Part shown: positions 5,439 through 26,856 of the stretch, one piece after another
How the letters are laid out: each line of letters opens with the position of its first letter
How positions within the stretch are numbered: the first letter of the stretch is position 1
Made by a program: the position numbers and the translations under genes
The notes under the pieces: generated by a model
The model's input: the letters and a program-made list of their open reading frames with translations, nothing else
Told to the model about the DNA's origin: nothing
Database searches by the model: none
Origin: Candidatus Multivorans sp.
GTDB taxonomy: Bacteria > Acidobacteriota > Thermoanaerobaculia > Multivoradales > Multivoraceae
Assembly (NCBI GenBank): GCA_965205095.1
Contig: OZ242040.1
Coordinates: 2,855,362-2,919,361 of the forward strand
Length of the DNA: 64,000 nucleotides
Reading direction: 5' to 3'

Positions 5439-6836
5439 ATGGCCCCTCAGGATCTGCCGGCTGCCCAGCAGTCGGAACTGGTGATTGTCGCCAACACCTT
5501 GCCCGTGCGTCGCGAGGAGGTGGATGGGGAACTGGGCTGGGCGCAAAGTCCCGGCGGCCTCGTCAGCGCCCTGTCGCCGATCGTGCGCGAGGCGGGCGGG
5601 TGCTGGGTGGGCTGGACCGGCGGCGCGGACGACGCGCCCGAGCCGTTCCGGCACGAAGGCATCCTGAACGTCGCGGTTCCGGTGTCGGAGGCGGAGGTCG
5701 CCGGCTCCTACCAGGGCATGTGCAACTCGACCCTGTGGCCGCTCTACCACGACGCGGTGCGGCCGCCCGAGTACCACCGCCACTGGTGGAACCCGTACGT
5801 CGCGGTCAACCGCCGCTTCGCCGAGGAGGCCGCGCGCCGTACCGCGCCCGGCGGCCGGGTGTGGATCCAGGACTACCACCTCCAGCTCGTGCCGCGGATG
5901 CTGCGCGAGCTGCGGCCGGACATCAGCTCCGGCTTCTTCCTGCACATCCCGTTCCCGCCGATCGAACTGTTCCTGCGCCTGCCGTGGCGGCGGGCGGTGC
6001 TGGAGGGACTGCTCGGCGCCGACGTGATCGGCTTCCAGACGCCGGCCGGCGCCTACAACTTCACGCGGCTCGCCGACCGGCTGATCGAGGCGGAGCCCCA
6101 GGGCGAGACGATCCGCTACCAGGGCCGCGACATCCGGGTCGGCGCCTTTCCGATCTCCATCGACACGGACCGCTACGCGAACGCGGCGCTGGCGCCCGAG
6201 ATCCGGGAGCGCGCCGAGCAGCTCCAGCAGCTCCGCCGCGGGCGGAAGATCATCCTCTCCGTCGACCGGCTCGACTACACGAAGGGCATCGACCTGCGGC
6301 TCAAGGCGTTCCTCGAGTGGCTGGGTCGCGAGGACCGATCGATCCGCGACGCGGTGATGGTCCAGGTCGCGGTGCCCAGTCGCGAGCGCATCTCGGAGTA
6401 CCAGATCCTGCGGCGCGACGTGGAGGAACTCGTCGGTCAGATCAACGGCGAGTACGGCGAACTCGGCGTCGTGCCGGTCCAGTACTTCCGGCGCAACCTG
6501 CCGTTCGAGGAACTCATCGCCTTCTACCTCGTCGCCGACGTGATGCTGGTGACGCCCCTCTGCGACGGCATGAACCTGGTGGCCAAGGAGTACGTCGCCA
6601 CGCGGCTCGAAGACGACGGCGTCCTCGTGCTCTCCGAGTTCGCGGGCGCGGCAGCCGAGCTGCCGGACGCCCTGCTGGTCAATCCCCACGACGTGAACGC
6701 GATGGCGGCCACGATTGAACAGGCGATCACCCTCGACCCGGAGGATGGAACGCGGCGGATGAAGGCAATGCGCGAGGTGGTTCGCCGCCACTCCGTCCAC
6801 GAGTGGGCGGCGCAGTTCATCGAGGCCCTGACCTGA
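5439..6836 (+). CDS. otsA: alpha,alpha-trehalose-phosphate synthase (UDP-forming), GT20
   Basis: In-frame ATG at 5439 (MAPQDLPAAQQSELVIVANTLPV...) within ORF 5376..6836. GT20 OtsA signatures are present throughout. The track's 5376 start would overlap otsB, so I rejected it. Confidence 0.85.
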   Translation: MAPQDLPAAQQSELVIVANTLPVRREEVDGELGWAQSPGGLVSALSPIVREAGGCWVGWTGGADDAPEPFRHEGILNVAVPVSEAEVAGSYQGMCNSTLWPLYHDAVRPPEYHRHWWNPYVAVNRRFAEEAARRTAPGGRVWIQDYHLQLVPRMLRELRPDISSGFFLHIPFPPIELFLRLPWRRAVLEGLLGADVIGFQTPAGAYNFTRLADRLIEAEPQGETIRYQGRDIRVGAFPISIDTDRYANAALAPEIRERAEQLQQLRRGRKIILSVDRLDYTKGIDLRLKAFLEWLGREDRSIRDAVMVQVAVPSRERISEYQILRRDVEELVGQINGEYGELGVVPVQYFRRNLPFEELIAFYLVADVMLVTPLCDGMNLVAKEYVATRLEDDGVLVLSEFAGAAAELPDALLVNPHDVNAMAATIEQAITLDPEDGTRRMKAMREVVRRHSVHEWAAQFIEALT

Positions 6837-8074
6837 CGCGGTATGGAACGGCGGGGCGTGCAACCGTGAAGGCCGGGCAGCAGCGCGGAGCACCCCCAGT
6901 CAGTGATGCCGAAGCGGGGTTCGAGGTAGGCGAGGGCTTCGAACGCTTTTCGCAGAAGGACGACATCTTCTGCCGTTCGTTCTGGGACCCCGAGGTGCGG
7001 ACCTCCCGCTCGGACATGTTCTACGAGACGTACCGCACGCCGGAGCTGCGCTGGCGTCCGGTCGACGGGTTCACGCGGCGCGACTACGCGCTACGCAACG
7101 CTTCCTGGCACGTCACCGACCTGTTCGCGGAGCTGCGGGGAGACGCCGACCGTCGCGAGGGCTTCCTCGACCCCTACACGGTGCTCCGGGACGGTCCGGG
7201 TCCGCCGGACGAGAGCGACGAACCGGAGGATGTCCTCGCCGCTCGACTCGCCGCCGATCTGAAGACGGCCGCCCACGCGCTGGGCGCCGACCTGATCGGC
7301 ATTACTGCAAACGACGAGCGCTGGGTGTACACACACGCGTACTCGCGGGAGAACGAGACGGAGAAACCGCAGGAGCTCCCGGGCGAACTCGGGAATGTCG
7401 TCGTCATTGCGCAGGCGATGGACCGGGGTCTGGTGGAGACCGTGCCGTCGGCCCTGAGCGGGACGGCGACAGGGGTCGGTTACAGCAGCGACACGGTGGT
7501 GCTGCTCGCGATCGCCCAGTACATCCTGAACATGGGCTACGCCGCGGTGCCGACGATGAACGACACGGCGCTGGCGATTCCGCTCGCGATCAAGGCGGGG
7601 CTGGGCGAATACGGCCGTCACGGGCTGCTGATCACCAGGGAGTTCGGCCCCAGGGTGCGGCTCGGGAAGATCTTCACCGACATGCCCCTGGCGCACGACC
7701 GTCCGTTGCGCTTCGGGGTGCGCGAGACCTGCGACGTGTGCCGCGCGTGTTCGGATGCCTGCCCGCCGAAGGCCATCGCGATGGACGCACCGGCGGACCG
7801 GATCTACAACATCTCCAACATCCGCGGCGTGAGGAAGTGGACGACGGACGCCGAGAAGTGCTTCCGGTTCTGGTCGAACCAGAACACCGACTGCTCGATC
7901 TGCGTCAGGGTCTGCCCCTACAACCGGGACTACTCCAGGCGCCTCAGCCGGCTCTGGAGGTGGATGGCGGGGACTCGCCTGCGCCGGCTCGCCCTCTGGC
8001 TCGACCGCCGGAGCGGCCGCGGACGGAGGGTTGAGCCCCAGACGTGGTGGGGCCGCGCCCTGCCTGGCTGGTAG
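6803..8074 (+). CDS. reductive dehalogenase / QueG-superfamily iron-sulfur protein (RdhA-like, non-respiratory type)
   Basis: The C-terminus has two ferredoxin-type motifs: CDVCRACSDACP, then C-x12-CSICVRVCPYNR (RdhA/QueG pattern). It also has LITREFGPRVRLGKIFTDMPL, which resembles the conserved RdhA core. There is no Tat signal and no rdhB neighbour. The start is uncertain: an alternative in-frame GTG at 6866 avoids a 34-nt overlap with otsA. Confidence 0.55.
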   Translation: MGGAVHRGPDLTRYGTAGRATVKAGQQRGAPPVSDAEAGFEVGEGFERFSQKDDIFCRSFWDPEVRTSRSDMFYETYRTPELRWRPVDGFTRRDYALRNASWHVTDLFAELRGDADRREGFLDPYTVLRDGPGPPDESDEPEDVLAARLAADLKTAAHALGADLIGITANDERWVYTHAYSRENETEKPQELPGELGNVVVIAQAMDRGLVETVPSALSGTATGVGYSSDTVVLLAIAQYILNMGYAAVPTMNDTALAIPLAIKAGLGEYGRHGLLITREFGPRVRLGKIFTDMPLAHDRPLRFGVRETCDVCRACSDACPPKAIAMDAPADRIYNISNIRGVRKWTTDAEKCFRFWSNQNTDCSICVRVCPYNRDYSRRLSRLWRWMAGTRLRRLALWLDRRSGRGRRVEPQTWWGRALPGW

Positions 8075-8168
8075 GCTTGAACGTAGCGTCCGGCCGCCGA
8101 GCGCAGGAGAACAGGAGGAAAGGCCGAACGGAATAGCGACTCTGCCCGTCCCGTTCGGATCCAATGCC

Positions 8169-9260
8169 ATGTGGATCAAGAAGTACGACCCCGCCCGTTA
8201 CCTCCCCTCCGACTCCGGTGTCGCGCTGCCGAGCAGCGAGCCGACGCCGCGCGACGTCTACATGGACCGGCGCAAGTTCGTGGCCGCGGCCACGGTCGGC
8301 ATCGCCGGCGCGTCGCCCCTGGCCGCCCAATTCCGCCAGCAGGTGCCGGCGCCTCCTCCGGCGCCGCCGATCGAGGACAAGCTGAAGCCGGCCCTCGAGA
8401 GGCCTGATGTGTACGGCGCCGAGCTCAGCGCGCGGCCCAAGCGGAACACGAAGTTCGCGGATCCGCCGGCCAGCATCGGCGGTGAACTGACGCCGCGCGA
8501 GGCGGCGGGCAGCCACAACAACTTCTACGAGTTCTATCCCGGTCGTGGCGGCCCGGTATGGAAGTTCGCCGGCAAGTTCACCGTCGAGCCCTGGAAGGTC
8601 GAGGTCACGGGCCTCTGCGACAACCCGATGACGCTCGATCTCGACGACATCTTCGGCTTCGAGCACGAGGAGCGGCTCTACCACTTCCGCTGCGTCGAGC
8701 GCTGGGCCATGAACGTGCCCTGGAGCGGCTTCCCCCTCAGCAAGCTGATCGAGAAGGCGCAACCGAAGTCGTCAGCCAGGCATGTCCGTTTCTTCACTGC
8801 TCTCAAGCGGGACCAGATGCCGGGCGTCAGGGAGGCCCACTGGTACCAGTGGCCCTACTTCGAAGCTCTCCGCATGGATGAGGCGATGAACGAGCTGGCC
8901 TTTGTCGCCACCGGCATCTACGGCGAGCCGCTGGTCAAGCAACACGGTGCGCCGCTGCGGCTCGCGATCCCGTGGAAGTACGGCTACAAGAGCGCGAAGT
9001 CGATCGTGAAGATCGAGTTCGTGGCCGAGGAGCCGAAGATCTTCTGGCAGATTCAGCCGCACGAGTACGGCTACCTCTCCAACGTGAACCCGAACATTCC
9101 GCATCCACGCTGGAGCCAGGCGACCTCGCACTGGCTGCACAACAGCCAGCCGTTCGAGACACCGATCTTCAACGGCTACGGCGAGTACGTCTCGAAGCTC
9201 TATCCCGAGGAGCCGACCACGATGCAGCGCGCGCTGCGCCAGGGTCAGGTCGCCCGGTAG
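8169..9260 (+). CDS. msrP: protein-methionine-sulfoxide reductase catalytic subunit MsrP (YedY, molybdopterin)
   Basis: In-frame ATG at 8169 inside ORF 8031..9260. The N-terminal leader is followed by the Tat motif MDRRKFVAAATVG. Conserved NNFYEF, RCVE-WAMNVPW-G and PWKYGYKS-K blocks match E. coli YedY throughout. Confidence 0.85.
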   Translation: MWIKKYDPARYLPSDSGVALPSSEPTPRDVYMDRRKFVAAATVGIAGASPLAAQFRQQVPAPPPAPPIEDKLKPALERPDVYGAELSARPKRNTKFADPPASIGGELTPREAAGSHNNFYEFYPGRGGPVWKFAGKFTVEPWKVEVTGLCDNPMTLDLDDIFGFEHEERLYHFRCVERWAMNVPWSGFPLSKLIEKAQPKSSARHVRFFTALKRDQMPGVREAHWYQWPYFEALRMDEAMNELAFVATGIYGEPLVKQHGAPLRLAIPWKYGYKSAKSIVKIEFVAEEPKIFWQIQPHEYGYLSNVNPNIPHPRWSQATSHWLHNSQPFETPIFNGYGEYVSKLYPEEPTTMQRALRQGQVAR

Positions 9261-9300: not shown

Positions 9301-9561
9301 ATGGGCGCCGCCACGGACACGCTGGGCACGGCCGACGCACTTGAAGGCGCCGGTCTTGATGCCGACACCGCCAAGGCAACAGCGCGCGCGATCGAAACGG
9401 GCTGCGCCTCCGCCGTCGAGGGGCTGGTGACGCGAGACGGCCTCAGGGCCGAGTTGAAGTCGCTGGAGACACGATTGGTCCTGTGGGGCGCGGGCATCGT
9501 GCTCGGTGGCGCCGCCCTGGTGCTGAGCGGAGTCGGCGTGCTGTTGAGACTGGTCGCCTAG
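9301..9561 (+). CDS. small DUF1640-like coiled-coil / C-terminal membrane-anchor protein
   Basis: 86-aa ORF with ...RAELKSLETRLVLWGAGIVLGGAALVL..., a pattern like the DUF1640 family. Its 3' end overlaps the ampG stop by 4 nt in a convergent arrangement. Confidence 0.4.
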   Translation: MGAATDTLGTADALEGAGLDADTAKATARAIETGCASAVEGLVTRDGLRAELKSLETRLVLWGAGIVLGGAALVLSGVGVLLRLVA

Positions 9562-11147: not shown

Positions 11148-11254
11148 CCTATGCGTAACCGTCTATGAGTCGGAGGAGACCCGGTGACCTGGAACCCAGG
11201 TCGTGCAGAATCCGTAGTTGAACGTGAGCAGTCTCTCTTGAGGAGGAACCGACC

Positions 11255-11464
11255 GTGACCGCGACAGCCACCCAGTCCCGCCCCCTTCATCGCTCCGGGT
11301 CCGACCGCCTGATCGGCGGCGTCTGCGGAGGCATCGCCGCCTGGCTGGGCTGGAACCCGACGGGCGTCCGCCTTCTCTACGTCCTGGTCTCGATCCTCTC
11401 GGTCGCGTTTCCCGGGATCATCGTCTACATCCTGCTCTGGATCGTGATGCCGCTCGGCGACTGA
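11255..11464 (+). CDS. PspC-domain protein
   Basis: 69 aa: SDRLIGGVCGGIAAWLGWNPTGVRLLYVL... is the PspC domain. A GTG start at 11255 follows an AGGAGGA RBS at 11241-11247. Confidence 0.6.
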   Translation: MTATATQSRPLHRSGSDRLIGGVCGGIAAWLGWNPTGVRLLYVLVSILSVAFPGIIVYILLWIVMPLGD

Positions 11465-11492
11465 GCCGCCAGCTACCGGCTGCGCCGCGGTC

Positions 11493-11550
11493 CACTGGGT
11501 GCGCCGGCGCCCCCGCCGGCTCTCTGAGGAACACGCGCCGCGAAGCGGCG
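11493..11550. repeat. REP-like repeat copy C (inverted orientation) between pspC and glcD
   Basis: cactgggtgcgccggcgcccccgccggc ... cgccgcgaagcggcg. Confidence 0.7.
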
Positions 11551-11590
11551 GCAGCACTCCGGCTCCGCTGGGTTGGTAGGCTGACTGCCC

Positions 11591-13048
11591 ATGGCCCCGG
11601 CCGACGCAGCCGACTTTCTCGACGCACTGAAACGGCGCCTCGGCGCCGAGCGCGTCCTCACCGGCGCGGCCCCCATGGCGGCCTACGAGTCGGACGCGCT
11701 GACCGCCTTCCGGGCCCGGCCCCGCGCCGTGGTGCTGGTCGACTCGGCGGAGGAAGTCGTCGACGTCGTGCGCCTTTGCGCAGCGGCCGAAGTGCCGTTC
11801 CTTGCCCGTGGCAGCGGCACGAGCCTGTCCGGCGGTTCGCTGCCGGTCCACGACGGCGTCGTGATCGCGATGAACCGGCTGAACCGGATCCTCGAAGTCG
11901 ACCCGGTGCGGCGGACGGCGGTCGTCGAGCCCGGCGTCGTCAACCTCGCCGTGTCCGACGCAGCGGAGCCCTACGGCCTCTACTACTCGCCCGACCCGTC
12001 GAGCCAGTCCGTCTGCACGATCGGCGGCAACCTGGCCTTCAACTCCGGCGGCGCGCACTGCCTGAAGTACGGCATGACGAGCAACCACGTGCTAGGTCTC
12101 GAAGTCGTACTCCCGGACGGCGAGGTGATCGAGCTCGGCGGAGACAGCCTGGAAGGCGTTGGCCCCGACCTCGTCGGGCTGTTCGTCGGCTCGGAGGGCC
12201 TGTTCGGCATCGCGACGAAGATCACCCTGCGCCTGCTGCCGAAGCCCGAGACGTACTTCACCCTGCTGGCGGCCTACGATTCGCTGGCGGCCGCGGGCGA
12301 GGCGGTGGCTGCCGTCGTTGCTTCGGGCCTGCTGCCCGGGGCGATGGAGATCATGGACAACCTGGCGATCGAGGCGGCCGAGGCGGCGGTCGGCGCCGGC
12401 TATCCGCTGGATGCCGAGGGGCTGCTGATCGTCGAACTGGAGGGCGAGAAGCAGCAGGTGGCCGCCGAGAGCGAGCTGCTGCTGGAAGTCGTCAGGCAAT
12501 CGAAGCCCTATCTCGAGCACATAGCGAGCGACCCGGATGACCGCATGCGGATCTGGAAGGGCCGCAAGAGCGCCTTCTCCGCGGTCGGGAGGCTGAGCCC
12601 GGACTACATCGTCCAGGACGGAGTGGTGCCGCGGTCCCGGCTTGGCGAGGCGCTGACCGAGATCCAGCGATTGGGCGCCAAGCACGGGATCCGCGTGGCG
12701 AACGTCTTCCATGCCGGCGACGGCAACCTGCACCCGCTGATCCTCTTCGACGGCCGGGTCGAGGGCGAACTGGAGCGGGCGGAGGAATTGGCGGGCGAGA
12801 TCCTTCGTCTCTGCATCGACCTCGGCGGCTCGATCACCGGCGAGCACGGCGTGGGGATGGAGAAGCGGCAGTACCTGGGCGAGATGTTCGACGACGCCGA
12901 CCTGGACGCGATGCGCCGGATCCGCATGGCGATCGATCCCGGCGAACTGGCGAACCGGGGCAAGATGTTCCCGGACGCCGAGGCGCCGGCGCTGCTGAGC
13001 CACGGTCCGCACCCCTTGGAAGTGGCCGGAGTCATCTCGCGCGAATGA
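11591..13048 (+). CDS. glcD: glycolate oxidase subunit GlcD (FAD-linked oxidase)
   Basis: 485 aa with FAD_binding_4 and C-terminal FAD-oxidase_C blocks ([19 protein letters not shown]). Confidence 0.85.
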
Positions 13049-13088
13049 GGCGCGGCGGCGCGGTCAACAACGGAGGGGCGGAAGACTC

Positions 13089-14210
13089 GTGACCGGCATC
13101 GTCCATCAGCCGGGTTCGGCGGCCGAGGTTGCCGAGGCCGTACGCGGTGCGGAGTTGGTCGTTCCGCGGTGCGGCGGAACGAAGCCTGCGCTGTCGGCGG
13201 TGGACGGCGCCGAAGTGCTCGACCTGTCGGCTCTCACCGGCATCACCGAGTACCTGCCGAGCGAGTACACGGTGACGGCCCTGGCCGGCACGCCGCTCGC
13301 CGATGTCGAGGCGCGGCTCGCTGCCGAGGGCCAGTACTTGCCGTTCGATCCGTTGCTGGTCGACGCCGGCAGCACGATCGGCGGCGCCGTGGCTGCGGGG
13401 GCCAACGGCCCCGGCCGGCTGCGCTACGGCGGGCTGCGTGACTTCCTGCTCGCGGTGACCTTCGTCGACGGCCGGGGCGAGATCGTCCGCGGCGGCGCCA
13501 AGGTGGTCAAGAACGCCGCCGGCTTCGATCTTCCCAAGCTCATGGTCGGCAGCCTGGGTCGCCTGGGCGTTCTCACGGAGTGCACGTTCAAGGTCTTTCC
13601 GCACCCGGAGAGTTGCGCCACCGTGCGCGTCGCCGGCAAGACGCTGGACGAGGCCCTCGAGGCCGCCGCCCGCGTTGGGTCCGGCGCGGTCGAGCTGGAG
13701 TGTCTGGACCTGGTGCACGGTCTGGCCGGCTGGGACCTGGAGATTCGCATCGGCGGCCGCAGCTTCGCCCTGGACGCTCGGTTGAAGCGGGTCGCCGATC
13801 TTCTCGACACGGACGTCACCACTCTCTCGGGAGATGGCGACGCCACGCACTGGCGCAGCCGCCGCGAGTTCGGCTGGGCTCCGCCGGACGCCTCCGTCCT
13901 CAAGCTCCCCCTGACGCCGGCCACGGCGGCCGTCCTGGAACAGGTCCTGGCCGACCTCGACGCTTCCCACGTAGCCAGGGTCTACAGCGCCGGCATCCAG
14001 CAGGCTTTCGTCGCCTGGCCCGCTGAACGCGCAGCCGACCTGCCATCCCTCGACCGCGCCTTGACTGCGGCGAAACTGACAGCGCTCGCGCTGCGCGCAC
14101 CGGTCGCCGCAGCAAGCCAGCCGATCCTCGGTTACCGCACCGGCGGCGAGCTGCTACGCCGCGTCGAGCAAGCCCTCGACCCGGCCGGCCGCTTCGGCCG
14201 CCTGGGCTGA
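13089..14210 (+). CDS. glcE: glycolate oxidase FAD-binding subunit GlcE
   Basis: 373 aa with an FAD-binding PCMH-type domain, directly downstream of glcD. GTG start. No glcF follows. Confidence 0.7.
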   Translation: MTGIVHQPGSAAEVAEAVRGAELVVPRCGGTKPALSAVDGAEVLDLSALTGITEYLPSEYTVTALAGTPLADVEARLAAEGQYLPFDPLLVDAGSTIGGAVAAGANGPGRLRYGGLRDFLLAVTFVDGRGEIVRGGAKVVKNAAGFDLPKLMVGSLGRLGVLTECTFKVFPHPESCATVRVAGKTLDEALEAAARVGSGAVELECLDLVHGLAGWDLEIRIGGRSFALDARLKRVADLLDTDVTTLSGDGDATHWRSRREFGWAPPDASVLKLPLTPATAAVLEQVLADLDASHVARVYSAGIQQAFVAWPAERAADLPSLDRALTAAKLTALALRAPVAAASQPILGYRTGGELLRRVEQALDPAGRFGRLG

Positions 14211-17630: not shown

Positions 17631-19043
17631 TCAATGCACGCGGTTGGTGGCGAGCAGCCATTGCGCTGCTTGCTCCCCGCACTCGGCGCCGACGGCGATC
17701 GCCCGGCTCAGGCCGACGCCGTGGAGCGCGTTGCCGGCCAGGCAGAAGCCGTCGATCGGGTCCAGGGCGGCCTCGATTCGGGCCACTCGCCGCGGGTGAC
17801 CGGGGGCGTACTGCGGGATGGCGTGCGGCCAGCGGGCGACGCTCGTGTAGGTCGGCTCGGCGTCCAGGCCTACAGTTCGGCGTAGCTCCCGGAGAGTCAG
17901 CTCGACGAGCTGAGCGTCGCCGAGGTCGGCAGCCTCGGGGTCTACGCTGCCGCCGAACATCGAGCGGGTCAGGAACGTGCCTTCGGGGCCGCGGCCGCGG
18001 AAGGTAGCGGTCTCGTACTGGCAGCCGAGCATGCGGATGCCCTCGCCGCGGGCGACGAGGAAGCCGTAAGCCGGCTCGATGTGGTCCGCGGCCGCGGCGT
18101 CGAACGCGGTGTGGACGACGGCCATCGGCGGCAATTCGATCTGCCGGAGTTCGTCGGCGGCCCCTGCCGAGACGCCGTCGACGAGATCGGCGGCCGAAGG
18201 CAGGTCGGCCGCGACGATGACTGCATCTCCAGTGACTTCGCCGCCGGAAGAAGCGACCCTGAAGCCGCTGCCGCGCCGTTCGATCGCGGTGACCCGCCGG
18301 TTGCAGCGGACTTCGATTCCCGGCAGGCCTGCGACGGCCTGCGGAAGGGCCTGAATGCCGCGGCAAAAGGTCCGGTGCCCCGGCGGCGGAACGCCGCGCC
18401 TGCGGCCGGCGCGCATCGCCTTGAACAGGGAACCGTAGGCCCGTTCCATCGCGACCAGGCGCGGGAACGCGGCCGCCGCCGAGAGCTTCCGCGCGTCGCC
18501 CGCGAAGATGCCGAGGACGACGGGCGAGATGAGGCGGCGGGCCGCCTGCCGGCCCATGCGCCGGGCGGCAAAGTCGTACAGCGACTCGTCTTCGCCGTCG
18601 CTGCCTTCCGCATCGCCGTCGTGCCGACTCCGCACCAGGGGTTCCATCGCCAGTCTCGCCAGGCCGAGCGGTCCCAGCAGGCCGCTCTTCGCGAAAGCCA
18701 ATGGGCTGCGCTGCAACTCCCGCAGCCTGCCGCCCCGGTAGATGTAGCGGCGGTTCGCGGCCGGTTCGGGCGCCAGCACTTCGTCCTCGAGGACGCACGC
18801 CTCGACCATCTCCCGTACGACCGGCTGATCGTCGAGGAAACTCTGGGGGCCGGTCTCGATCAGGAAGCCGCCGGCCTGCTCGGTCCGCGCCTTGCCTCCG
18901 ACTTCGCCGTCCGCCTCGAGCACGAGGATCTCGATCTCGCCGCCGGCGCGCTCCGCCTCGACCGACGCCTTCCAGGCGGCGGCCAGTCCGGAAGGCCCGC
19001 CGCCGACGACAACCAGGCGACGGGCCGACGGCTGTTCGCTCAA
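17631..19043 (-). CDS. hemY: oxygen-dependent protoporphyrinogen oxidase (FAD)
   Basis: C-terminal ~470 aa of ORF 17631..19427. VVVGGGPSGLAAAW is the dinucleotide-binding motif and PPOX family blocks are present. The TTG start overlaps the hemE TGA (TTGA at 19040-19043). Confidence 0.75.
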   Translation of the reverse strand: MSEQPSARRLVVVGGGPSGLAAAWKASVEAERAGGEIEILVLEADGEVGGKARTEQAGGFLIETGPQSFLDDQPVVREMVEACVLEDEVLAPEPAANRRYIYRGGRLRELQRSPLAFAKSGLLGPLGLARLAMEPLVRSRHDGDAEGSDGEDESLYDFAARRMGRQAARRLISPVVLGIFAGDARKLSAAAAFPRLVAMERAYGSLFKAMRAGRRRGVPPPGHRTFCRGIQALPQAVAGLPGIEVRCNRRVTAIERRGSGFRVASSGGEVTGDAVIVAADLPSAADLVDGVSAGAADELRQIELPPMAVVHTAFDAAAADHIEPAYGFLVARGEGIRMLGCQYETATFRGRGPEGTFLTRSMFGGSVDPEAADLGDAQLVELTLRELRRTVGLDAEPTYTSVARWPHAIPQYAPGHPRRVARIEAALDPIDGFCLAGNALHGVGLSRAIAVGAECGEQAAQWLLATNRVH

Positions 19044-20134
19044 GCGTCCTCCGCCTCGGCGTGGACGGACTCGACCAGGGCCTGCACCGCCTGAAGCGGA
19101 GTCTCCGGCAGCACGCCGTGTCCCAGGTTCACGATGTGGCCAGGTCGCGGCAAGCTGGCGAGCAGGAGTCCGGTCTCGCGCCGGACCGCCTGTTCGCCGG
19201 CCAGGAGTGCGGCGGGGTCCAGGTTGCCCTGCAGGCAGAGGTCCGGCCGCCGCCGCCGGAGCGCTCCGAGGTCGGTGCGCCAGTCGACGCCGAGCGCCTC
19301 GCAGGGCAGGCCGGCGTAGTCGTCGACCAACTGGGGTGCGGCGTGGAGGAAGAGGATGCGGGGGACGCCGGCGTCGCCGAGCCGCCGGAGCAGCCGATCG
19401 AGGTGCGGCCGAATCCTCTGTCGCCATTCGGCGCGCGGGAAGAGACCGGCCCAGGAATCGAAGACCTGTACCGCGTCGGCGCCGGCCCGGTGCTGGCCGA
19501 GGAGATAGCGGGCGCAGAGCCGTCCCAGGCGGTCGAGCAGGGCGTCAAATGCCGCCGGCTCCTGGTAGGCGAACGCCCGCAGCCGCGGGAAGTCGCGGAC
19601 GCCGCGGCCCTCGACCAGGTAGGCCGCGAGGGTCAACGGAGCGCCCGCGAAGCCGAGGAGCGCCGTCTCCGGGACGAGCTCGGACCGGACGATCCGCTGG
19701 GCGGCCGCGACCTCCGGGGCGATCGCGGCCTCGTCGAGGTCGTCGGGATCGGGCAGGGCGGCGACGTCCCGCGCGCTGCGGATCGGCTCGGCGATCACCG
19801 GCCCCGGATCGAAGCGGAAGTCGACACCGAGGGCCGGCATGGGCGACATGATGTCCGCGAACGTGATCGCGGCGTCGAAGGGGAAGCGCCGGAGCGGCAT
19901 CAGGGTGACTTCGGCCGCCAGTTCCGGGTCGCGCGCGAGGCCGGCGAAGCCGTGGCGCTCCTTGAGTGCCCGGTACTCGGGCAGGATGCGTCCGGCCTGA
20001 CGCATCATCCACAGCGGCCGTCGCGGCGTGTCCTCGAATCGAAGGGCGCGCAGCAGCAGGGGTTCGGCCGGCGGGGCGGTGGCGGCGGCCGGGGCGGCAG
20101 CAGGCCCGGCCGCGGTCGTCGGCAGGGTGTTCAC
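19040..20134 (-). CDS. hemE: uroporphyrinogen decarboxylase
   Basis: URO-D signatures (PLWMMRQAGRILPEY...). The putative GTG start at 20132-20134 overlaps the hemA TGA (GTGA). The upstream part of the track ORF was rejected. Confidence 0.8.
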   Translation of the reverse strand: MNTLPTTAAGPAAAPAAATAPPAEPLLLRALRFEDTPRRPLWMMRQAGRILPEYRALKERHGFAGLARDPELAAEVTLMPLRRFPFDAAITFADIMSPMPALGVDFRFDPGPVIAEPIRSARDVAALPDPDDLDEAAIAPEVAAAQRIVRSELVPETALLGFAGAPLTLAAYLVEGRGVRDFPRLRAFAYQEPAAFDALLDRLGRLCARYLLGQHRAGADAVQVFDSWAGLFPRAEWRQRIRPHLDRLLRRLGDAGVPRILFLHAAPQLVDDYAGLPCEALGVDWRTDLGALRRRRPDLCLQGNLDPAALLAGEQAVRRETGLLLASLPRPGHIVNLGHGVLPETPLQAVQALVESVHAEAEDA

Positions 20135-21489
20135 TCGCCGGCCGTCCAGCGGGTCGATGGCTCGGAGGGCCTGTCGGCGCGCCGCTGTTCGAGCAGCTCC
20201 GGCGCCGCCGCGGCAAGGAAGGCGTCGACGCCGTCCTGACCGATCTCGATCGCCACCGCGCGCAGCCCCACGACCGGCAGGTGGCTCAGACGCTTCGCCA
20301 TCACGGCGGTCCACTCCCGGAGCGCTTCCCGTTCCGCCTCCGAGAGGCCCGCGAGATCGCCCTGCAGCAGGCGGTCCAGGTTGGCGCCCAGGGAATCCTG
20401 GTACTTGGCGCCGATCGCCCGGATCGCGCCGGCGACGGACCTGGTGGCCATTGCTTCGCGGTAGGCGTCGAGTTCCTCGTCGATCAGCACGCGGGCATCG
20501 GCGGTGCGCCCGCGCCGGTCGCGGAGGGTCTTCTGGGCCAGTTCATTGATCTGGTCCATGCCGATCCGCTTCAGACCCGCGACGCGGGCGTCGGCTGGAG
20601 CGACATCGGCCGGGATCGCCATGTCGATCACCAGCGGTGAGGCGCCGTACCGGGCGTCGCCGGCCGCGGCCAGGACCGACAGGCACCGCCGATCGACCAC
20701 CGGCCCCGGGGCGCCGGTCGAGAAAAGTGCCGCGGTCACCGGCGGCGGCTCGGACCGGAACCAGTCGAGGCTCATCGTTTCGACGGTCTTTGCGGATCCG
20801 TTCGCCGCGGTCGTGCCGCCCGTTCTTTCGGCAAGGTCGTCGGCCTTCGAGCGGGTGCGGTTGACCAGGACCAGGGGGATTCCGCGGGAGTGCAGCCGTT
20901 CCGTACACGTCTCGGTCATCGCCGCGACGCCGACCAGCGCCACCGGCCCCGGATGCTCCGCGGCGCGCTCGGTCAACAGGTCGGCCGCGATCTCCGACAG
21001 CGACGTGCGCCCGGCGCCGACCCCGGTCTCCCGGTGTACCCGCTTGCCGGCCCGAAGCGCCGATTCGACCACGCGCCGCAACTCCGGGTCGACCGTGCCG
21101 CTGGCCGTCGCCTCCTCCAGCGCGTCGCGCAACTGGCCGCGGATCTCCCGCTCTCCAGGCTGGGCCGAGTCGAGGCCGGCCGCTACCAGGTACAGGTGCT
21201 CGACCGCGCCTTCCCCTTCCCAGCTCCGGAAGACTCGCCGCGCCGCCCCCTCGCCGGCCACCAGCCGCAACAGCTCCCGCCGGCACGAGGCCAAGGTAGC
21301 TCCGGGCTCGGCCGAGAAGGCGAACGCCACCCGGTTGCACGTGGCGAGATAGATCAGCCCCTGAGCGCCGATCCGCTGCTTCAGCCGCCGCATCTCGGCG
21401 GCCCGCCGCTCATCCGGCACGGTGTACTGCGCGATCTCCTCGGCGCTCGCGTACCGCCAGGTCACCGCCACGACGCAACAGTTGTCCAT
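20131..21489 (-). CDS. hemA: glutamyl-tRNA reductase
   Basis: ATG at 21487-21489 (MDNCCVVAVTWRYA...). It has the LATCNRV signature and an NADPH-binding domain. Confidence 0.85.
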   Translation of the reverse strand: MDNCCVVAVTWRYASAEEIAQYTVPDERRAAEMRRLKQRIGAQGLIYLATCNRVAFAFSAEPGATLASCRRELLRLVAGEGAARRVFRSWEGEGAVEHLYLVAAGLDSAQPGEREIRGQLRDALEEATASGTVDPELRRVVESALRAGKRVHRETGVGAGRTSLSEIAADLLTERAAEHPGPVALVGVAAMTETCTERLHSRGIPLVLVNRTRSKADDLAERTGGTTAANGSAKTVETMSLDWFRSEPPPVTAALFSTGAPGPVVDRRCLSVLAAAGDARYGASPLVIDMAIPADVAPADARVAGLKRIGMDQINELAQKTLRDRRGRTADARVLIDEELDAYREAMATRSVAGAIRAIGAKYQDSLGANLDRLLQGDLAGLSEAEREALREWTAVMAKRLSHLPVVGLRAVAIEIGQDGVDAFLAAAAPELLEQRRADRPSEPSTRWTAGE

Positions 21490-21523
21490 CGGGCGATTCT
21501 GACCTAGTGGGACGCCTGGATTG

Positions 21524-22660
21524 TCACGGTTGTGTCGGCGTCGACGGTCCACTCTCGCGCACGCCGCATCTCGGCGGCACGTCTGATGCCGGCGGGGGCG
21601 CCGGCGCACCCAGTGTTCGCCACTCGCGGGTGTTGCGGAGGATCAGGTCGGTCAGCGCGTCGAGATGGTCGGGGCGGTCGTTGAGGCAGGGGATGTAACG
21701 AAGGCGCTCGCCGCCGGACTCCTCGAAGTAGCCGCGATTCTCGACCTCGATCTCTTCGAGCGTCTCGATGCAGTCGGCGGAGAAGCCGGGACAGGCGACG
21801 TCGACGTTCCCGAGGCCGGCCTCGGGCAGCTCGCGCATCGTGGCATCCGTCTTCGGGCCGATCCACAACTCGCGGCCGAACTGGGACTGGAAGGTGCTGA
21901 CCACCCGTTCCTCGTCGACGCCGAGCTCCCGGACCAGCAGGCGCGTGGTCTCCAGGCACTGGCACTGGTACGGGTCGCCGTTGTCGATGTAGCGCTGCGG
22001 CACGCCATGGTAGGAGAGGACGAGCCGGTCGGGCTCTCCGTCGCTCCAGGTTTCGCGGATGCTCGCGGCGAGCGAGCGCAGGAAGCCGGGGTCGTCGTAG
22101 TAGCTGTTGATCGTCCGCAGTTCGGGCACCCAACGCCAGCGGCCGAGTTGCCGGGCGAGCATGTCGATCGTGGACGCCGTGGTGGCGGCCGAGTACTGCG
22201 GGAAGAGCGGGAAGAACAGGAGGCGCGTGCATCCCCTGTTGCGGAGTTCCGCGAGCGCGTTTCCGATCGACGGTTCGCCGTAGCGCATCCCGAGGGCGAC
22301 ATGGAACGGGGGACCGCTTTCGCCCTGCTGCTGCCGTAGCCTCGCGGCGATGCCCTCGACCTGGCGTTTGCCGATCGCGAGGAGCGGCGAGCCCTCGTCG
22401 GTCCAGATCTTCTCGTAGAGCTTCGCGACCCGCTGGGGCCGCGTCGTCAGCACGAACAGGTAGAGGATCGGCAGCCACTTCCAGCGCGGCACCTCGGCGA
22501 TGCGGGTGTCGCTCAGGAACTGCCGGAGGTAGCGGCGCAGGGCCCCCGCCGTGGGCGCCGCGGGGGTGCCGACGTTGGCGAGCAGGACGCCGATGGCGCC
22601 GCGGTCCACGGAGGCGTCGACGCGCGGTTCGGGTTCGTAGAGGGATGTGCCGCTGGTCAT
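21524..22660 (-). CDS. hemH: ferrochelatase
   Basis: 378 aa with ferrochelatase blocks throughout. The last ~30 codons (LGAPAPPPASDVPPRCGVRESGPSTPTQP) are a translation of a REP-like repeat copy. Confidence 0.85.
   Translation of the reverse strand: MTSGTSLYEPEPRVDASVDRGAIGVLLANVGTPAAPTAGALRRYLRQFLSDTRIAEVPRWKWLPILYLFVLTTRPQRVAKLYEKIWTDEGSPLLAIGKRQVEGIAARLRQQQGESGPPFHVALGMRYGEPSIGNALAELRNRGCTRLLFFPLFPQYSAATTASTIDMLARQLGRWRWVPELRTINSYYDDPGFLRSLAASIRETWSDGEPDRLVLSYHGVPQRYIDNGDPYQCQCLETTRLLVRELGVDEERVVSTFQSQFGRELWIGPKTDATMRELPEAGLGNVDVACPGFSADCIETLEEIEVENRGYFEESGGERLRYIPCLNDRPDHLDALTDLILRNTREWRTLGAPAPPPASDVPPRCGVRESGPSTPTQP
21560..21615. repeat. REP-like GC-rich repeat copy D (module GATGCCGGCGGGGGCGCCGGCGCACCCAGTG), embedded in the 3' end of hemH
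   Basis: Shares the GCGCCGGCGCACCCAGTG core with copies at 1970-1997, 2778-2793, 11493-11520, 37224-37252 and 41185-41215. Confidence 0.7.
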
Positions 22661-22670
22661 GCGGTGTCGG

Positions 22671-23675
22671 TCAGATCCAGTCGCGGCGGACCAGGAAGTC
22701 GGAGGAGAGGCGGGCTTCGGGGGTTCCGGGTTCGGGCGCGTAGTCGTAGCGCCACGCCGCCAGCGGCGGCAGGGACGCCAGGATCGACTCGGTTCGGGCC
22801 CTCGCCTGGAGTCCGTAGCGCGTGCCGCGGTCGTACACCAGGTTGAACTCCACGTAGCGCCCCCTGCGGTAGAGCTGGAAGTCGCGCTCGCGCTCGCCGT
22901 AGGAAAGACCCCTGCGGCGCTCCAGGATCGGCAGGTAGGCGGGCAGGAAGTGGTCGCCGACGCTGCGGGCGAAGGAGAAGCAGCGTTCGAAGCGGCTGAG
23001 TTCGGCCGGTCGTTCGAGCCGGTTCAGATCGTCGAAGAAGAGACCGCCGACGCCGCGCATCTCCTGCCGGTGGGGAAGGTAGAAGTAGTCGTCGCAGGCG
23101 GCCTTGTAGCGGGCGTAGAGGTCGTCGCCGTAAGGCGCGCAGGCCTCGGCCGCGGTGCGGTGCCAGTGAACCGCGTCCTCCTCGAAGCCGTAGTAGGGGG
23201 TCAGATCGAAGCCGCCGCCGAACCACCAGCCCTCCTCGTCCGCATGGGCGGCGCCCTGGGGTTCGGCGTCCGCGGGCGGATGCGCGATGAAGAAGCGGAT
23301 GTTGGCGTGGCTCGTCGGTGCGTACGGGTTGCGCGGGTGCACGATCAGGGACACGGAGGTCGCCTCGAAGGAACGCCCCGCCAGTTCCGGCCGCCGCTCG
23401 GTCGCGGCGAGGGGCAGGGAGTCGCCGCGTGAATGGCTGAAGTTCACGGCGGCCTTCTCGATCACGGGGCCGTCGGTCAGCACCCTGGGCCGGGCGCATC
23501 CGCCCCGCTCGTTCGTCAACTCGCGGGCGTCGAACGGGGTGCCGTCGATCTCGACCAGTGCGTTGCAGATGCCGTCCTGCAGGCCGCGGAAGTAGGCGGC
23601 AACCGCGCCGGCGTCGTTCTGCGGTTCCCCGGCCGCCGTCGACTGGTCGGCGCTCGTACCGGAAGCGGGACTCAC
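22671..23675 (-). CDS. hemF: oxygen-dependent coproporphyrinogen III oxidase
   Basis: HemF blocks ([21 protein letters not shown]...). In-frame GTG at 23675-23673 overlaps the hemL TGA (GTGA). The N-terminal 200 codons of the track ORF were rejected. Confidence 0.8.
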
Positions 23676-24970
23676 GGCGCCGGAATCTCCGCCAGGGCTT
23701 CGCCGACCGCCGTGGCGAAAGCGCCGAGCGTCTCCTCGTCGTGGGCGAGGGAAAGGAAGCCGACCTCGAACGCGGACGGGGCGAGCATGTAGCCGCGGTC
23801 GAGCAGCCCGCGGTGGAGGAGGCCGAAGACCTCGGCCGTGTTCGGGTGGAAGCGGTCGGCCCGGCGCGGCGGTTCGCCGTCGCCGTACGCGAGCCAGAAG
23901 ATCGACCCGCAGCGGACGAGCCGGTAGGGGTGGCCGCTCGTTTCGAGGACGGGGCCGAGCTCGCGGTCGAGGAGCGCGCCCTGGTCTTCCATCCGCTTCC
24001 ATCCATCGCCGGCCGCGAGTTCGCGCAGGGTGGCGAGTCCGCCGGCGACGGCGAGCGGGTTCCCGGACAACGTGCCCGCCTGGTAGACGGGGCCGAGCGG
24101 CGAAAGCCGGTCCATCAGCCGCGCCGGGCCGCCGTAGGCGCCGACCGGCAGTCCGCCGCCGATCACCTTGCCGAGCGTGACGAGATCGGGCTCGATGCCG
24201 AGCTGAGCGCCGACGGTGACTCCGGGGACCCGGAAGCCGCTCAACACTTCGTCGAAGATCAGCAGTGCGCCGTGCTCGGTGCACAGGCGGCGCAGGAGTT
24301 GCAGATAGCCCCGCCGCTGCACCAGGAGGCCGTTGTTCGCCGGCAGCGGCTCGATGATCGTGGCCGCCAGGTTGTCCCCGTGGCGCCGGAAGGCCTCCTT
24401 CAGCGCCTCCTCGTCGTCGAGCGGCAGGACGATCGTGTCGCGCGCGGTCGCCGCCGGGATGCCGGCGCTCGAGGCGATCCCGAAGGTGGCGAGACCGCTT
24501 CCGGCTTCGACCAGCAGGGCGTCGACGTGGCCGTGGTAGCAGCCTTCGAACTTGAGCACCAGGTCGCGGCCGGTACAGCCGCGGGCGAGCCGGACCGCCG
24601 ACTGGGTCGCCTCGGTGCCGGAGTTGACGAACCGGATCTTCTCGATGACCGGCACGAGTTCCTTGACCATCCGCGCCAGCTCAACCTCGCCCTCGTGGGG
24701 CGCGGCGAAGGACGTGCCGCGCGCTGCCGCCTCGCACACCGCCTCGACCACGGCCGGGTGGCTGTGTCCCAGCACCAGGGGCCCGAAGGAGCCGACGAAG
24801 TCGACGTAGCTCCTGCCGTCGACCGAGCGCATGACCGCCCCTTCGGCCTCGGCGATGAAGGGCGGCGTGCCGCCGACCGCGCGGTATGCCCGCACCGGAC
24901 TGTTCACGCCGCCGACCAGGTGGCGCTGCGCCTCCACCCAGAGGTCTTCACTGCTTCGTCCGGCGCTCAT
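23672..24970 (-). CDS. hemL: glutamate-1-semialdehyde 2,1-aminomutase
   Basis: 432 aa, class-III aminotransferase with a GSA-AT signature. Its ATG overlaps the hemC-hemD fusion stop (ATGA). Confidence 0.9.
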
Positions 24971-26856
24971 TCAGTCCCCCTCGGGTCCGCGTCCGCTTCG
25001 TCGAGCCACAGGCGTTCGATGCCGGCGGCGGTCGGTTCCTCTGCGCACTTCACGTTGCCGGCTCCGGCGCTGCGGAGCGCCGCGGCTGTGGCGGCTCCGA
25101 TCGCCCAGCAGCTTCCCGGCCAGTCCAGGCCGGACGCTGCGAAGGCGGAAACCGCCGATGGAGCCGTGAAGAGTACGCGGGCGTGGGCCGCTTGCCAACC
25201 TTGCGGCCAGTCGAGTGCGTCGTTCGGATGCACGGTGTAGGCCGCCCAGGCAGTGACCTGGCGGCCGGCCGCCTGGAGCGCCTCGACGAGCGACGCTCCG
25301 CCGCGGGCGGAATGCGGCACGAACAGCGGGCAACGCGGGTCGAGCACCCGGGCCGCGTAGCCGGCAAGGTCCCGGCCGCCGGAGGCCCGCGCGGCCAGGT
25401 TCGGCGGCACGCCGGCCGCGAGCAGCGCGCGGGCGGTCCCTTCGCCCAGCGCGCACCACGGCAGCCGGCCCCAGACCGGCTCGCGCGCGGCGCGCTCCGC
25501 GACGACGCACGCGGCGTTCGGCGAGGAGACGAGCAGCCACGGCCACTGGCGTCGCGGACGGTCCAGGTCGATACGGTCCGCCGGCCAGGGGGTGTCGAAG
25601 ATCTCGACGGTGGTCGCCGGCAGAGCGGCGACGCCCACGCCTGGAGGCAGCCGCCTCGTCAGGCGCCGAACAGTCGTCGGGCCGGAAGTCACGATGAGGT
25701 CCGGCGTCGGATCGGTAGGACGCTCCTCACTGGGTGCGCCGGCGCCCTCGCCGGCCGCCGCCGCAGGCGGCTTCGAGAACGCGCCGGCCGTCAGGCCGGC
25801 ACCGAACTCCGCCAGACCCCGCTCAATCCGCTCCGCCAACGCGTCAAGATCGATGCCCCCGGCTCGGTCAGCGATCGAGACCGCTGCGCCGACGGCAGCC
25901 GGCGCCTCCCCGACCGCGGCCGCCTCCCGCCACTCATCGGGTGCGATCAGGGCATGGACCTCACGCAGTACGACCTCTTCCGCCTCCCCCTCGCCGGCGT
26001 CCGCCCAAGCCCCGAAAGGCCGCAGACAGCCACCCCCCAACCGGCCGAGCAGGGCACGCTCGGCGAAGGCCGCCGCCCGGCTCGGAGAGTGGTCGAGCGC
26101 CGCCATTGCCGCATGGCCATCCAGCCGCCCGCCGCGCAGGACCTGCACCGCGAGGGCGCCCTGGCCGGGAGCGCATGGCCAGGAGCGAAGGTCCAGCCGG
26201 AAACCGCGGATGGCGCCGGCTGAAGCTTCCAGCTCGCCGTTTCGCGCCAGGCGCAGGACGCCCGCTTCCGCCGCCAGCAGGGCGTCGATCGCGCCGCTCC
26301 GGAGCCACTCGAGCCGGCGTCCCACCGAGCCGCGGACGGCGCAGCAGACGAGGTCCGGCCGCAGAGCCAGCGCCCCGGCCTGCCGGCGTGGCGACGAGGT
26401 GCCCAGGCGCGCGCCGACCGAGAGCGGCGCGAACGCCGCGGCCGCCGGCCTGGTCTGCTTCTCCAGGGCGTCGTCGCCGTGATCGATCAGCTCCGCGAGC
26501 GTCGGCGCCCCTTCGCTCGCCTCGTTCGCTTCGTCGCCCGGCGCGAACAGCAGCAGATCGAACGGTCGCTCCCGCTCCGGCACCGCCGCGATCACCAGGT
26601 CCCGCTCGTCCTCCACCGGCAGGTCCTTCAGCGAGTGGACGACGAGATCCACGGAGCCGTCGCGCAGGGCCGCGGTCAGCTCGCCGGTGAATACGCCCTT
26701 GGCCTGGGCGAAACTGCCGCCGAGGCTGCGGTCGCCCTGGGAAGACATGGCTCGCACTGCCGTGTCCACGCCGAGCTCGCCGAGCCGCCGGGCGACCAGG
26801 TCGGCCTGAATCCGCGCCAGTGGCGTTGCCCTGGTGCCGATGACGATCGGGGCCAT
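24967..26856 (-). CDS. hemCD: bifunctional hydroxymethylbilane synthase / uroporphyrinogen-III synthase (HemC-HemD fusion)
   Basis: Single 629-aa ORF. The N-terminal ~330 aa is porphobilinogen deaminase (IVIGTRATPLARIQA..., cofactor Cys in GGGCLRPFGAWA). The C-terminal ~250 aa carries HemD blocks (LLVSSPNA..., VLFTAPSAV). Confidence 0.8.
   Translation of the reverse strand: MAPIVIGTRATPLARIQADLVARRLGELGVDTAVRAMSSQGDRSLGGSFAQAKGVFTGELTAALRDGSVDLVVHSLKDLPVEDERDLVIAAVPERERPFDLLLFAPGDEANEASEGAPTLAELIDHGDDALEKQTRPAAAAFAPLSVGARLGTSSPRRQAGALALRPDLVCCAVRGSVGRRLEWLRSGAIDALLAAEAGVLRLARNGELEASAGAIRGFRLDLRSWPCAPGQGALAVQVLRGGRLDGHAAMAALDHSPSRAAAFAERALLGRLGGGCLRPFGAWADAGEGEAEEVVLREVHALIAPDEWREAAAVGEAPAAVGAAVSIADRAGGIDLDALAERIERGLAEFGAGLTAGAFSKPPAAAAGEGAGAPSEERPTDPTPDLIVTSGPTTVRRLTRRLPPGVGVAALPATTVEIFDTPWPADRIDLDRPRRQWPWLLVSSPNAACVVAERAAREPVWGRLPWCALGEGTARALLAAGVPPNLAARASGGRDLAGYAARVLDPRCPLFVPHSARGGASLVEALQAAGRQVTAWAAYTVHPNDALDWPQGWQAAHARVLFTAPSAVSAFAASGLDWPGSCWAIGAATAAALRSAGAGNVKCAEEPTAAGIERLWLDEADADPRGTE

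Follow-up and report, generated by a model that had tools for sequence, protein, structure and literature searches.

The stretch of DNA analyzed here, 64,000 nucleotides (nt) of contig OZ242040.1 from the acidobacterium Candidatus Multivorans sp. (hereafter, the window), encodes, between otsA and msrP, a 402-amino acid (aa) protein that, judging from sequence and fold comparisons, is a reductive dehalogenase (RdhA) proper, closer to the respiratory-type enzyme PceA than to NpRdhA or BhbA, and not an epoxyqueuosine reductase (QueG). The reading that we favor, with a probability of roughly 0.6, is that the protein functions as a stand-alone, soluble, cytoplasmic cobalamin/Fe-S reductive dehalogenase that is non-respiratory and acts on natural organohalogens of the host. 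The protein belongs to the RdhA family at the level of both the fold and the active site; by analogy with characterized enzymes, we infer cobalamin occupancy, the dehalogenation reaction, the electron donor and the class of substrates. The initial annotation of the window had described a Fe-S protein of the RdhA/QueG superfamily, wedged between otsA and msrP and lacking both a twin-arginine translocation (Tat) signal peptide and a gene for the RdhB anchor. All these claims are borne out, and the family assignment can now be narrowed to RdhA proper.

Relationship to RdhA and QueG

In a phmmer search of the PDB, the protein is most similar to PceA (8q4h, E-value of 1.1e-48; 4uqu, 4.3e-46), followed by NpRdhA (6.4e-26) and QueG (3.6e-11). 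An AlphaFold2 model built from 66 diverse sequences (predicted local distance difference test score of 90.6, predicted template modeling score of 0.91) gave Foldseek results consistent with those of the sequence search, with template modeling (TM) scores of 0.77, 0.70, 0.72 and 0.38. The RdhA fold, that is, the nitroreductase-like corrinoid-binding core together with the N-terminal region, is recovered along the whole length of the protein, and the overall structure is not QueG-like. The reductive dehalogenase model TIGR02486 scores 153 bits, more than twice the 67.6 bits of the QueG model TIGR00276, which is missed widely (cutoff of 200), with the match to the latter confined to residues 249-377 (residue numbers refer to the 423-aa open reading frame (ORF) unless the 402-aa numbering is stated, so that, for example, Tyr227 equals Tyr206 in the latter). 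Among the Pfam models, Fer4_16 is matched above the cutoff (36.6 bits against 30), as is Fer4_7, and precomputed matches to PF13486 (Dehalogenase) are available for most of the homologs that are 67-93% identical to the window protein. Because the similarity to PceA and NpRdhA in the PDB search exceeds that to QueG, and because the equivalents of PceA Tyr246, Asn272 and Arg305 are invariant in the family, the protein is identified as an RdhA rather than a QueG.

Active site and cellular location

Throughout the family, the residues at the positions of Tyr227, Asn253 and Arg286 do not vary, and among the 66 diverse relatives, each is conserved to at least 90%. Tyr227 is the counterpart of the proposed proton donor, Tyr246 of PceA and Tyr426 of NpRdhA (PMC5500849, PMC7565698), and Asn253 is the counterpart of PceA Asn272, a conserved active-site residue (PMC6737245, PMC5500849). 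Arg286, which belongs to the conserved core (of which the segment LITREFGPRVRLGKIFTDMPL occupies residues 276-296), aligns with PceA Arg305 and NpRdhA Lys488. The set consisting of Tyr, Arg or Lys, and Asn is a described feature of the RdhA active site (PMC5500849, PMC6737245, PMC7565698), and pocket residues at the positions of PceA Trp376 and Tyr382 have been described as well (PMC5500849, PMC7565698). The counterparts of the latter two positions lie inside the second Fe-S motif, where Trp357 aligns with PceA Trp376 and NpRdhA Arg552, and Asp363, which is invariant in the family, aligns with PceA Tyr382. All eight cluster cysteines are present. The twin Fe-S motifs noticed in the initial annotation are thus both found, with YNR following the second, but the spacing in the second motif is x10, not x12 as originally given.

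No twin-arginine motif of the RRxFLK type and no hydrophobic segment are found in the first 80 residues, and no Tat motif was detected in the homologs read, whose N-termini are variable and hydrophilic. The sole 19-residue stretch exceeding 1.6 on the Kyte-Doolittle scale, residues 231-249, is located within a long helix of the structural model. The conserved part of the family starts at SDAEAGFEV..FERFSQKDDIFCRSFWD, and the preceding portion varies in both length and sequence. The RFxQKNxxFxRxxWD motif is present in Tat-less and Tat-bearing relatives alike, following a Tat-like leader in the latter; therefore, the window protein is equivalent to an RdhA without the leader. Having neither an export signal nor a membrane segment, it is predicted to be cytoplasmic. 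Small genes of the rdhB kind, which would encode a membrane anchor, are absent from the immediate neighborhood, from the rest of the window and from all of the approximately 90 related loci. In these loci, neither rdhC, rdhK or rdhT nor a quinol dehydrogenase or hydrogenase module is adjacent to the gene, and no ferredoxin or reductase is a constant partner in any context.

Gene model

The mechanically predicted ORF spans positions 6803..8074 of the plus strand, which amounts to 423 aa counted from GTG 6803, and has a G+C content of 0.875 at third codon positions, a coding-type value similar to those of the adjacent genes. The initial annotation left the choice of the start codon open between 6803 and GTG 6866, and aligning the DNA with that of about 20 close relatives settles the matter in favor of the latter. 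Position 6803 lies inside otsA and has no support from the relatives, among which the frame of the upstream extension is not kept; a 44-nt indel falls there, and the extension is probably untranslated. In the relatives that lack the 44-nt insertion, the gene starts with an ATG located 6-7 nt past the otsA stop (MARPVSD...). In the window and several relatives, the insertion is present, so that the corresponding ATG at window position 6843 is out of frame, and the in-frame GTG 6866, which sits inside the insertion, is common to most of the insertion-bearing relatives that were aligned (with an ATG in the locus numbered L029). Because the insertion disrupts the frame of ATG 6843 and because GTG 6866 is shared by most of the insertion-bearing relatives, the alignment identifies GTG 6866 as the start of a 402-aa protein. 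This model agrees with the 98% identical database protein P0001. The coordinates of the gene, its motifs and its flanking genes are collected in Table 1.

Table 1. Positions in the window of the RdhA-like gene, its motifs and active-site residues, and the flanking genes
Feature	Position	Strand	Evidence and remarks
RdhA-like gene	6866..8074	+	Start GTG 6866; 402 aa plus stop
In-frame upstream extension of the mechanical ORF	6803..6865	+	Covers the 3' end of otsA plus the 29-nt spacer
N-terminal motif FERFSQKDDIFCRSFWD	6938..6988	+	Near the N-terminus here; behind a Tat-like leader in Tat-bearing relatives
Tyr227 (Tyr206 in 402 aa) = PceA Tyr246 = NpRdhA Tyr426	7481..7483	+	phmmer alignments to 4uqu, 4ras
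Asn253 (Asn232 in 402 aa) = PceA Asn272	7559..7561	+	phmmer alignment
AGLGEYGRHGLLITREFGPRVRLGKIFTDMPL core, including Arg286 (Arg265 in 402 aa)	7595..7690	+	phmmer alignments; nearly invariant in 66 diverse relatives
First [4Fe-4S] motif CxxCxxCxxxCP; C310/C313/C316/C320; residues 310-321	7730..7765	+	Motif scan; Fer4_16 and Fer4_7 matches
Second [4Fe-4S] motif C-x10-CxxCxxxCP; C353/C364/C367/C371; residues 353-372	7859..7918	+	Followed by YNR (to 375)
otsA, trehalose-6-phosphate synthase (Glyco_transf_20)	5439..6836	+	PF00982 in L001, L002; 29 nt upstream of GTG 6866
msrP, periplasmic methionine-sulfoxide reductase catalytic subunit	8169..9260	+	NF003767, 350 bits against a cutoff of 207; 94 nt downstream

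The 5' end of the gene (window positions 6843-6901, and the same place in L001-L031) is a hotspot of indels. The 44-nt insertion, which is found in the window and in about half of the close relatives and is missing from the others, moves the start from the ATG beside the otsA stop to an internal GTG or ATG; L002 and L027 carry an additional insertion of about 33 nt at the 5' end.

Distribution and evolution

A word-indexed protein search yielded 2359 homologs, of which the best 120 were inspected; these are 67-98% identical to the window protein and mostly 387-442 aa long. When 50%-identity representatives were searched exhaustively, all members of the family fell into one cluster, and the next full-length relatives are 35-49% identical. 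The few named sources of these next relatives are Anaerolineae and Dehalococcoidia, and most of the nearby representatives are Tat-less. The initial annotation considered non-respiratory RdhA-like enzymes to be few, which is accurate for the characterized ones but not for homologs, given that 73 of the 112 nearest full-length representatives of the 50%-identity clusters lack a Tat-like N-terminus.

When GTDB was scanned with each species represented by one genome, 296 relatives were identified, and the statements on distribution that follow pertain to the best 80 of these, all of which come from metagenome-assembled genomes (MAGs). At 90% identity or higher, all MAGs are titled Acidobacteriota (Ca. 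Multivorans/Multivoraceae, Thermoanaerobaculia, "Holophagales" SB06xx bins, and COS and RHO bins). At 70-76% identity, the titles are those of Gemmatimonadota (Longimicrobiales and Ca. Palauibacter), with the sole exception of L048, which is titled Gammaproteobacteria. The acidobacterial and Gemmatimonadota lineages were confirmed as separate phyla. Many of the names hint at sponge or coral hosts, such as P. irciniicola, P. rhopaloidicola, P. poriticola, the "ROBB21" sponge metagenomes and "Plut" (PMC10469786).

In a neighbor-joining tree with 100 bootstraps, the family and its acidobacterial clade are each monophyletic (100/100 for both), and the Acidobacteria group with the main Gemmatimonadota clade, leaving the Gemmatimonadota loci L004-L006 outside (100/100), so that the Gemmatimonadota are paraphyletic. 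Identity averages 94% among the Acidobacteria and 85.5% among members of the main Gemmatimonadota clade; across the two phyla, the mean is 74%. Taken together with the patchy distribution of the enzyme, the tree and the 74% identity between phyla indicate gene transfer between the phyla, probably in the direction from Gemmatimonadota to the Ca. Multivorans lineage. Other genes in these loci are 26-43% identical between the phyla (n=6, too few comparable proteins to serve as a control). Two Gemmatimonadota MAGs each carry two copies of the gene, 85-87% identical and in differing contexts (L067/L072 and L076/L079), which, by these features, are genuine paralogs. Paralogs residing in separate contexts typify RdhAs that diversify in substrate and are atypical of a housekeeping enzyme.

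The tree was built without L065, a Longimicrobiales chromosome from which the extracted RdhA-like sequence is 23% identical over 261 columns, probably because of a frameshift or the choice of a wrong segment.

Genomic context

In the window, GH15 and otsB on the minus strand are followed by otsA, the RdhA-like gene and msrP on the plus strand and then by a major facilitator superfamily transporter on the minus strand. The synteny with otsA and msrP is restricted to relatives with at least 89% identity, within the acidobacterial clade, and on this account, a functional link with either gene was rejected as a general rule. Among the relatives that are 67-76% identical, the RdhA-like gene occurs in at least six further contexts, for a total of at least seven. 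It is found behind an MsbA-like ATP-binding cassette exporter (and is then followed by genes for a secreted DinB_2 protein, for peptidases, for DUF885, for an aminotransferase and for a TonB-dependent receptor), behind a sodium:solute symporter, behind an amino-acid permease, divergent to a TetR gene, and directly behind a pair of genes for sulfoacetaldehyde acetyltransferase (xsc; TIGR03457, 738 bits) and a class-III aminotransferase. In L004-L006, the RdhA-like gene and the gene for a 747-aa permease (11221-13464) share 4 nt at the stop of the former. The best NCBIfam match of this permease, which is found in this one lineage only, is to the K-Cl cotransporter family, at 303 bits, far under the cutoff. 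The permease is a possible partner for the handling of halide or cations, and the overlap of a cation-chloride-cotransporter-like gene would fit the disposal of halide from the cytoplasm.

The xsc context is exemplified by L073, which represents Ca. Palauibacter irciniicola (6781-8565), and by L076 (8597-9991), with the RdhA-like gene starting at about 10000; L068, L075, L081 and L085 are arranged likewise. In these Gemmatimonadota loci, the RdhA-like gene abuts the stop of the aminotransferase, and a sodium:alanine symporter is close by. The combination of xsc with a tpa-like aminotransferase is probably a taurine-catabolism pair. Halogenated amino acids were considered as substrates in view of the amino-acid permeases in L089-L093, the sodium:alanine symporter and the aminotransferases. 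This idea is weakened because the aminotransferase probably belongs with xsc in a taurine pathway, because the "AA_permease" of L004 is closer to the cation-chloride cotransporters, and because the contexts share no neighbor; it survives solely within the speculative scenario given below.

Two minor observations concern msrP, beside which no msrQ gene was noticed. It is followed by a conserved 86-aa ORF (9301-9561, plus strand) with a C-terminal hydrophobic stretch, which is present in 5 acidobacterial loci and is not RdhB-like.

Proposed function and alternatives

Under the favored reading, electrons would be supplied by ferredoxin or flavodoxin, a low-potential carrier encoded by a separate gene, and would travel by way of the two [4Fe-4S] clusters to a corrinoid in the conserved core, which would reductively cleave the carbon-halogen bond. 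Tyr206, held or assisted by Arg265 (402-aa numbering), would donate the proton, and the halide would be set free into the cytoplasm. A separate soluble carrier and a non-respiratory role are proposed because the protein appears to be cytoplasmic, with no anchor and no reductase domain. The reaction could serve the detoxification or catabolism of natural organohalogens or provide an electron sink. The most plausible substrates would be brominated or iodinated aromatic metabolites, which are abundant in sponge and coral hosts. Brominated sponge metabolites select for debrominating bacteria (PMC12203066), and for this reason, a host organohalogen is the most economical guess at the substrate. The initial annotation referred to an apparently aerobic genome, a description for which the support is only indirect: the genome is that of a Ca. 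Multivorans-like acidobacterium, and among the Gemmatimonadota with related genes, the sponge-derived Palauibacterales are described as facultative aerobes (PMC10469786).

Several observations weigh against this reading. The curated reductive dehalogenase models are narrowly missed, with 153 bits against a cutoff of 160.35 for TIGR02486 (NCBIfam) and 21.6 against 24.3 for PF13486 (Pfam). No conserved neighbor indicative of the substrate or the electron donor is found in the approximately 90 loci, and the window contains no gene for cobalamin synthesis or uptake and no cobalamin riboswitch. The conservation of the family at 67-98% identity is unusual for xenobiotic-directed RdhAs and could instead mean that its members share one conserved physiological substrate other than an organohalogen. 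Furthermore, this family and the neighboring Tat-less clusters are known from sequence alone, and the association with animal hosts is derived from MAG titles and species names rather than from sample metadata.

The alternative that best withstands the comparison, although we consider it unlikely, is that the protein is an RdhA-fold cobalamin/Fe-S reductase of a conserved non-halogenated substrate, in which case dehalogenation would be the wrong reaction. A precedent exists in QueG, a member of the same superfamily that reduces an epoxide; the family is unusually tight, forming one 50%-identity cluster with the next relatives at no more than 49%; there are no dehalogenation-linked neighbors; and the position of PceA Tyr382 is occupied by the invariant Asp. 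Conversely, the full Tyr/Asn/Arg set associated with carbon-halogen cleavage in PceA and NpRdhA is invariant (PMC5500849, PMC7565698, PMC6737245), the overall fold and the sequence both resemble the dehalogenases far more than QueG, which is the sole non-dehalogenase included in the comparison, and paralogous copies exist inside genomes.

Distinctly less probable is a role as the terminal reductase of energy-conserving organohalide respiration, of the PceA type, for use in anoxic host tissue. The nearest solved structures are indeed those of respiratory PceAs, and the hosts are facultatively anaerobic and possess alternative respirations (PMC10469786; species epithets), but the Tat signal, transmembrane segments and rdhB are all missing, none of the contexts places a quinol dehydrogenase or hydrogenase module next to the gene, and the cytoplasmic site removes the usual periplasmic coupling, leaving at best a cytoplasmic electron sink. 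That the protein is the epoxyqueuosine reductase of the organism, whether as a divergent QueG or as a non-orthologous enzyme that takes its place on tRNA, appears highly improbable in view of the structural and active-site comparisons, even though the superfamily core and the twin Fe-S motifs are shared and some databases label homologs "epoxyqueuosine reductase" (JGI names). The window contains no queG, queH, tgt or queA.

Returning to dehalogenation of host compounds, we put forward, tentatively and as a possibility rather than an expectation, a broader scenario, in which a cytoplasmic dehalogenase family specific to the reef holobiont moved between Gemmatimonadota and Acidobacteriota symbionts, was then duplicated, and debrominates or deiodinates halogenated aromatics of the host. 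If this is the case, facultatively aerobic, abundant symbionts of sponges and corals would turn over, for example, bromophenols and compounds of the bromo- or iodotyrosine type, or what these are broken down to. Debromination in sponges is at present credited to anaerobic Desulfoluna (PMC12203066); organohalogen turnover would then not be confined to rare anaerobic respirers of the Desulfoluna type, and the presence of a dehalogenase family in two dominant symbiont phyla would alter the view of who cycles the brominated metabolites of the host. It would also be a clear case of niche-driven gene sharing across phyla and would provide an RdhA scaffold that is compact, lacks a fused reductase and may tolerate oxygen. 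Should the substrate turn out to be non-halogenated, the known chemistry of the RdhA/QueG superfamily would be extended.

Comparison with known systems

The closest solved structures are those of PceA, the respiratory tetrachloroethene reductive dehalogenase (8q4h, of the Desulfitobacterium/Dehalobacter type, and 4uqu, from Sulfurospirillum multivorans). The window protein differs from PceA in the absence of the Tat leader, the RdhB partner and the respiratory context and in the replacement of Tyr382 by Asp; the Tat signal peptide and an adjacent rdhB, the marks of the respiratory RdhAB systems, are both wanting. Furthermore, the host belongs to a lineage of facultatively aerobic heterotrophs and is no organohalide respirer.

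Only a few non-respiratory reductive dehalogenases have been characterized, NpRdhA, which contains an extra domain, and BhbA among them; a stand-alone enzyme of 402 aa from oxygen-exposed bacteria would suit biocatalysis and bioremediation. NpRdhA and BhbA are catabolic, oxygen-tolerant enzymes of aerobic marine Proteobacteria that share with the window protein the cytoplasmic location and the absence of both Tat signal and RdhB. The class of cytoplasmic enzymes with neither Tat signal nor RdhB has been defined, with NpRdhA as a Tat-less, oxygen-tolerant representative (PMC4771760, PMC7565698). However, the alignment with NpRdhA (about 700 residues) covers only its residues from about 351 to 614, the extra N-terminal domain of NpRdhA being absent here, and the target-normalized TM score is 0.43. 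Enzymes of the NpRdhA/BhbA type have this extra domain, a fused NAD(P)H reductase module, or both; the window protein has neither, and 402 aa are too short for a further fused domain. The ligands of the substrate hydroxyl in NpRdhA, Lys488 and Arg552, are replaced by Arg286 and Trp357, as in PceA (PMC7565698), and the similarity to NpRdhA (94 bits) is below that to PceA (160-170 bits).

The same architecture, at about 350-420 aa, is found in the "minimal" Tat-less RdhA homologs from metagenomes of Chloroflexota (Dehalococcoidia and Anaerolineae) and of Loki- and Thorarchaeota, in which the RFxQKNxxFxRxxWD motif likewise marks the beginning. Outside the family, the nearest clusters belong to this type; for instance, P0129 from Anaerolineae is 45% identical to the window protein, and P0137, a "reductive dehalogenase" from Dehalococcoidia, is 39% identical. 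Minimal Tat-less RdhAs have been reported from metagenomes (PMC6737245, PMC12219181), and Tyr246, Arg305 and Asn272 are kept in the Asgard proteins, too (PMC6737245). In contrast to these homologs, which come from strictly anaerobic sediment lineages, the window family is represented in Acidobacteriota and Gemmatimonadota of reef invertebrates and forms a separate tight cluster, with at most 49% identity to any of them. With QueG, the protein shares the cobalamin-binding core, the ferredoxin-like domain with two [4Fe-4S] clusters, the cytoplasmic location and, presumably, the capacity to work in aerobes, but the match is limited to the central 130-200 residues, approximately.

Thus, signal-less RdhA homologs were already known to be common in metagenomes, as uncharacterized proteins. 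What is added here is a resolved gene model, the exclusion of QueG, and a family that is common to, and probably exchanged between, two phyla of reef-invertebrate symbionts. The searchable literature on Ca. Multivorans and on reductive dehalogenases in sponge Acidobacteriota or Gemmatimonadota yielded no account of this family.

Other features of the window

The rest of the window holds the ordinary housekeeping genes of a heterotroph, such as those for heme synthesis, gltX and glnS; it contains no Rfam matches and no tRNA genes, and a scan for promoters and terminators was uninformative. The fused hemC-hemD gene (24967-26856, minus strand; porphobilinogen deaminase and uroporphyrinogen-III synthase, 629 aa) adjoins hemL (23672-24970), and hemA (20131-21609) is about 2 kilobases away; with hemE-hemY, these genes make up a heme-synthesis cluster. 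In the region 17631-20314 (minus strand), a break near 19310 splits the URO-D and Amino_oxidase halves into different frames (-3 and -2). The L001 counterpart is a single 829-aa gene in which uroporphyrinogen decarboxylase (URO-D) is fused to a protoporphyrinogen-oxidase-like Amino_oxidase domain, and the pieces in the window are 93-99% identical to it; the break reflects a frameshift, pseudogene formation or an error in the assembly.

A full-length bacterial homolog of angiotensin-converting enzyme (Peptidase_M2, E-value of 2e-221, 611 aa), a eukaryote-like peptidase in a host-associated bacterium, is encoded at 26985-28820 (plus strand). Finally, at 35133-38569 (plus strand), a 675-aa protein with FG-GAP/ASPIC (UnbV) repeats is followed by an overlapping gene for a 470-aa tetratricopeptide repeat protein; the pair is CRTAC1-like and extracellular, and possibly has a role in interaction with the host.

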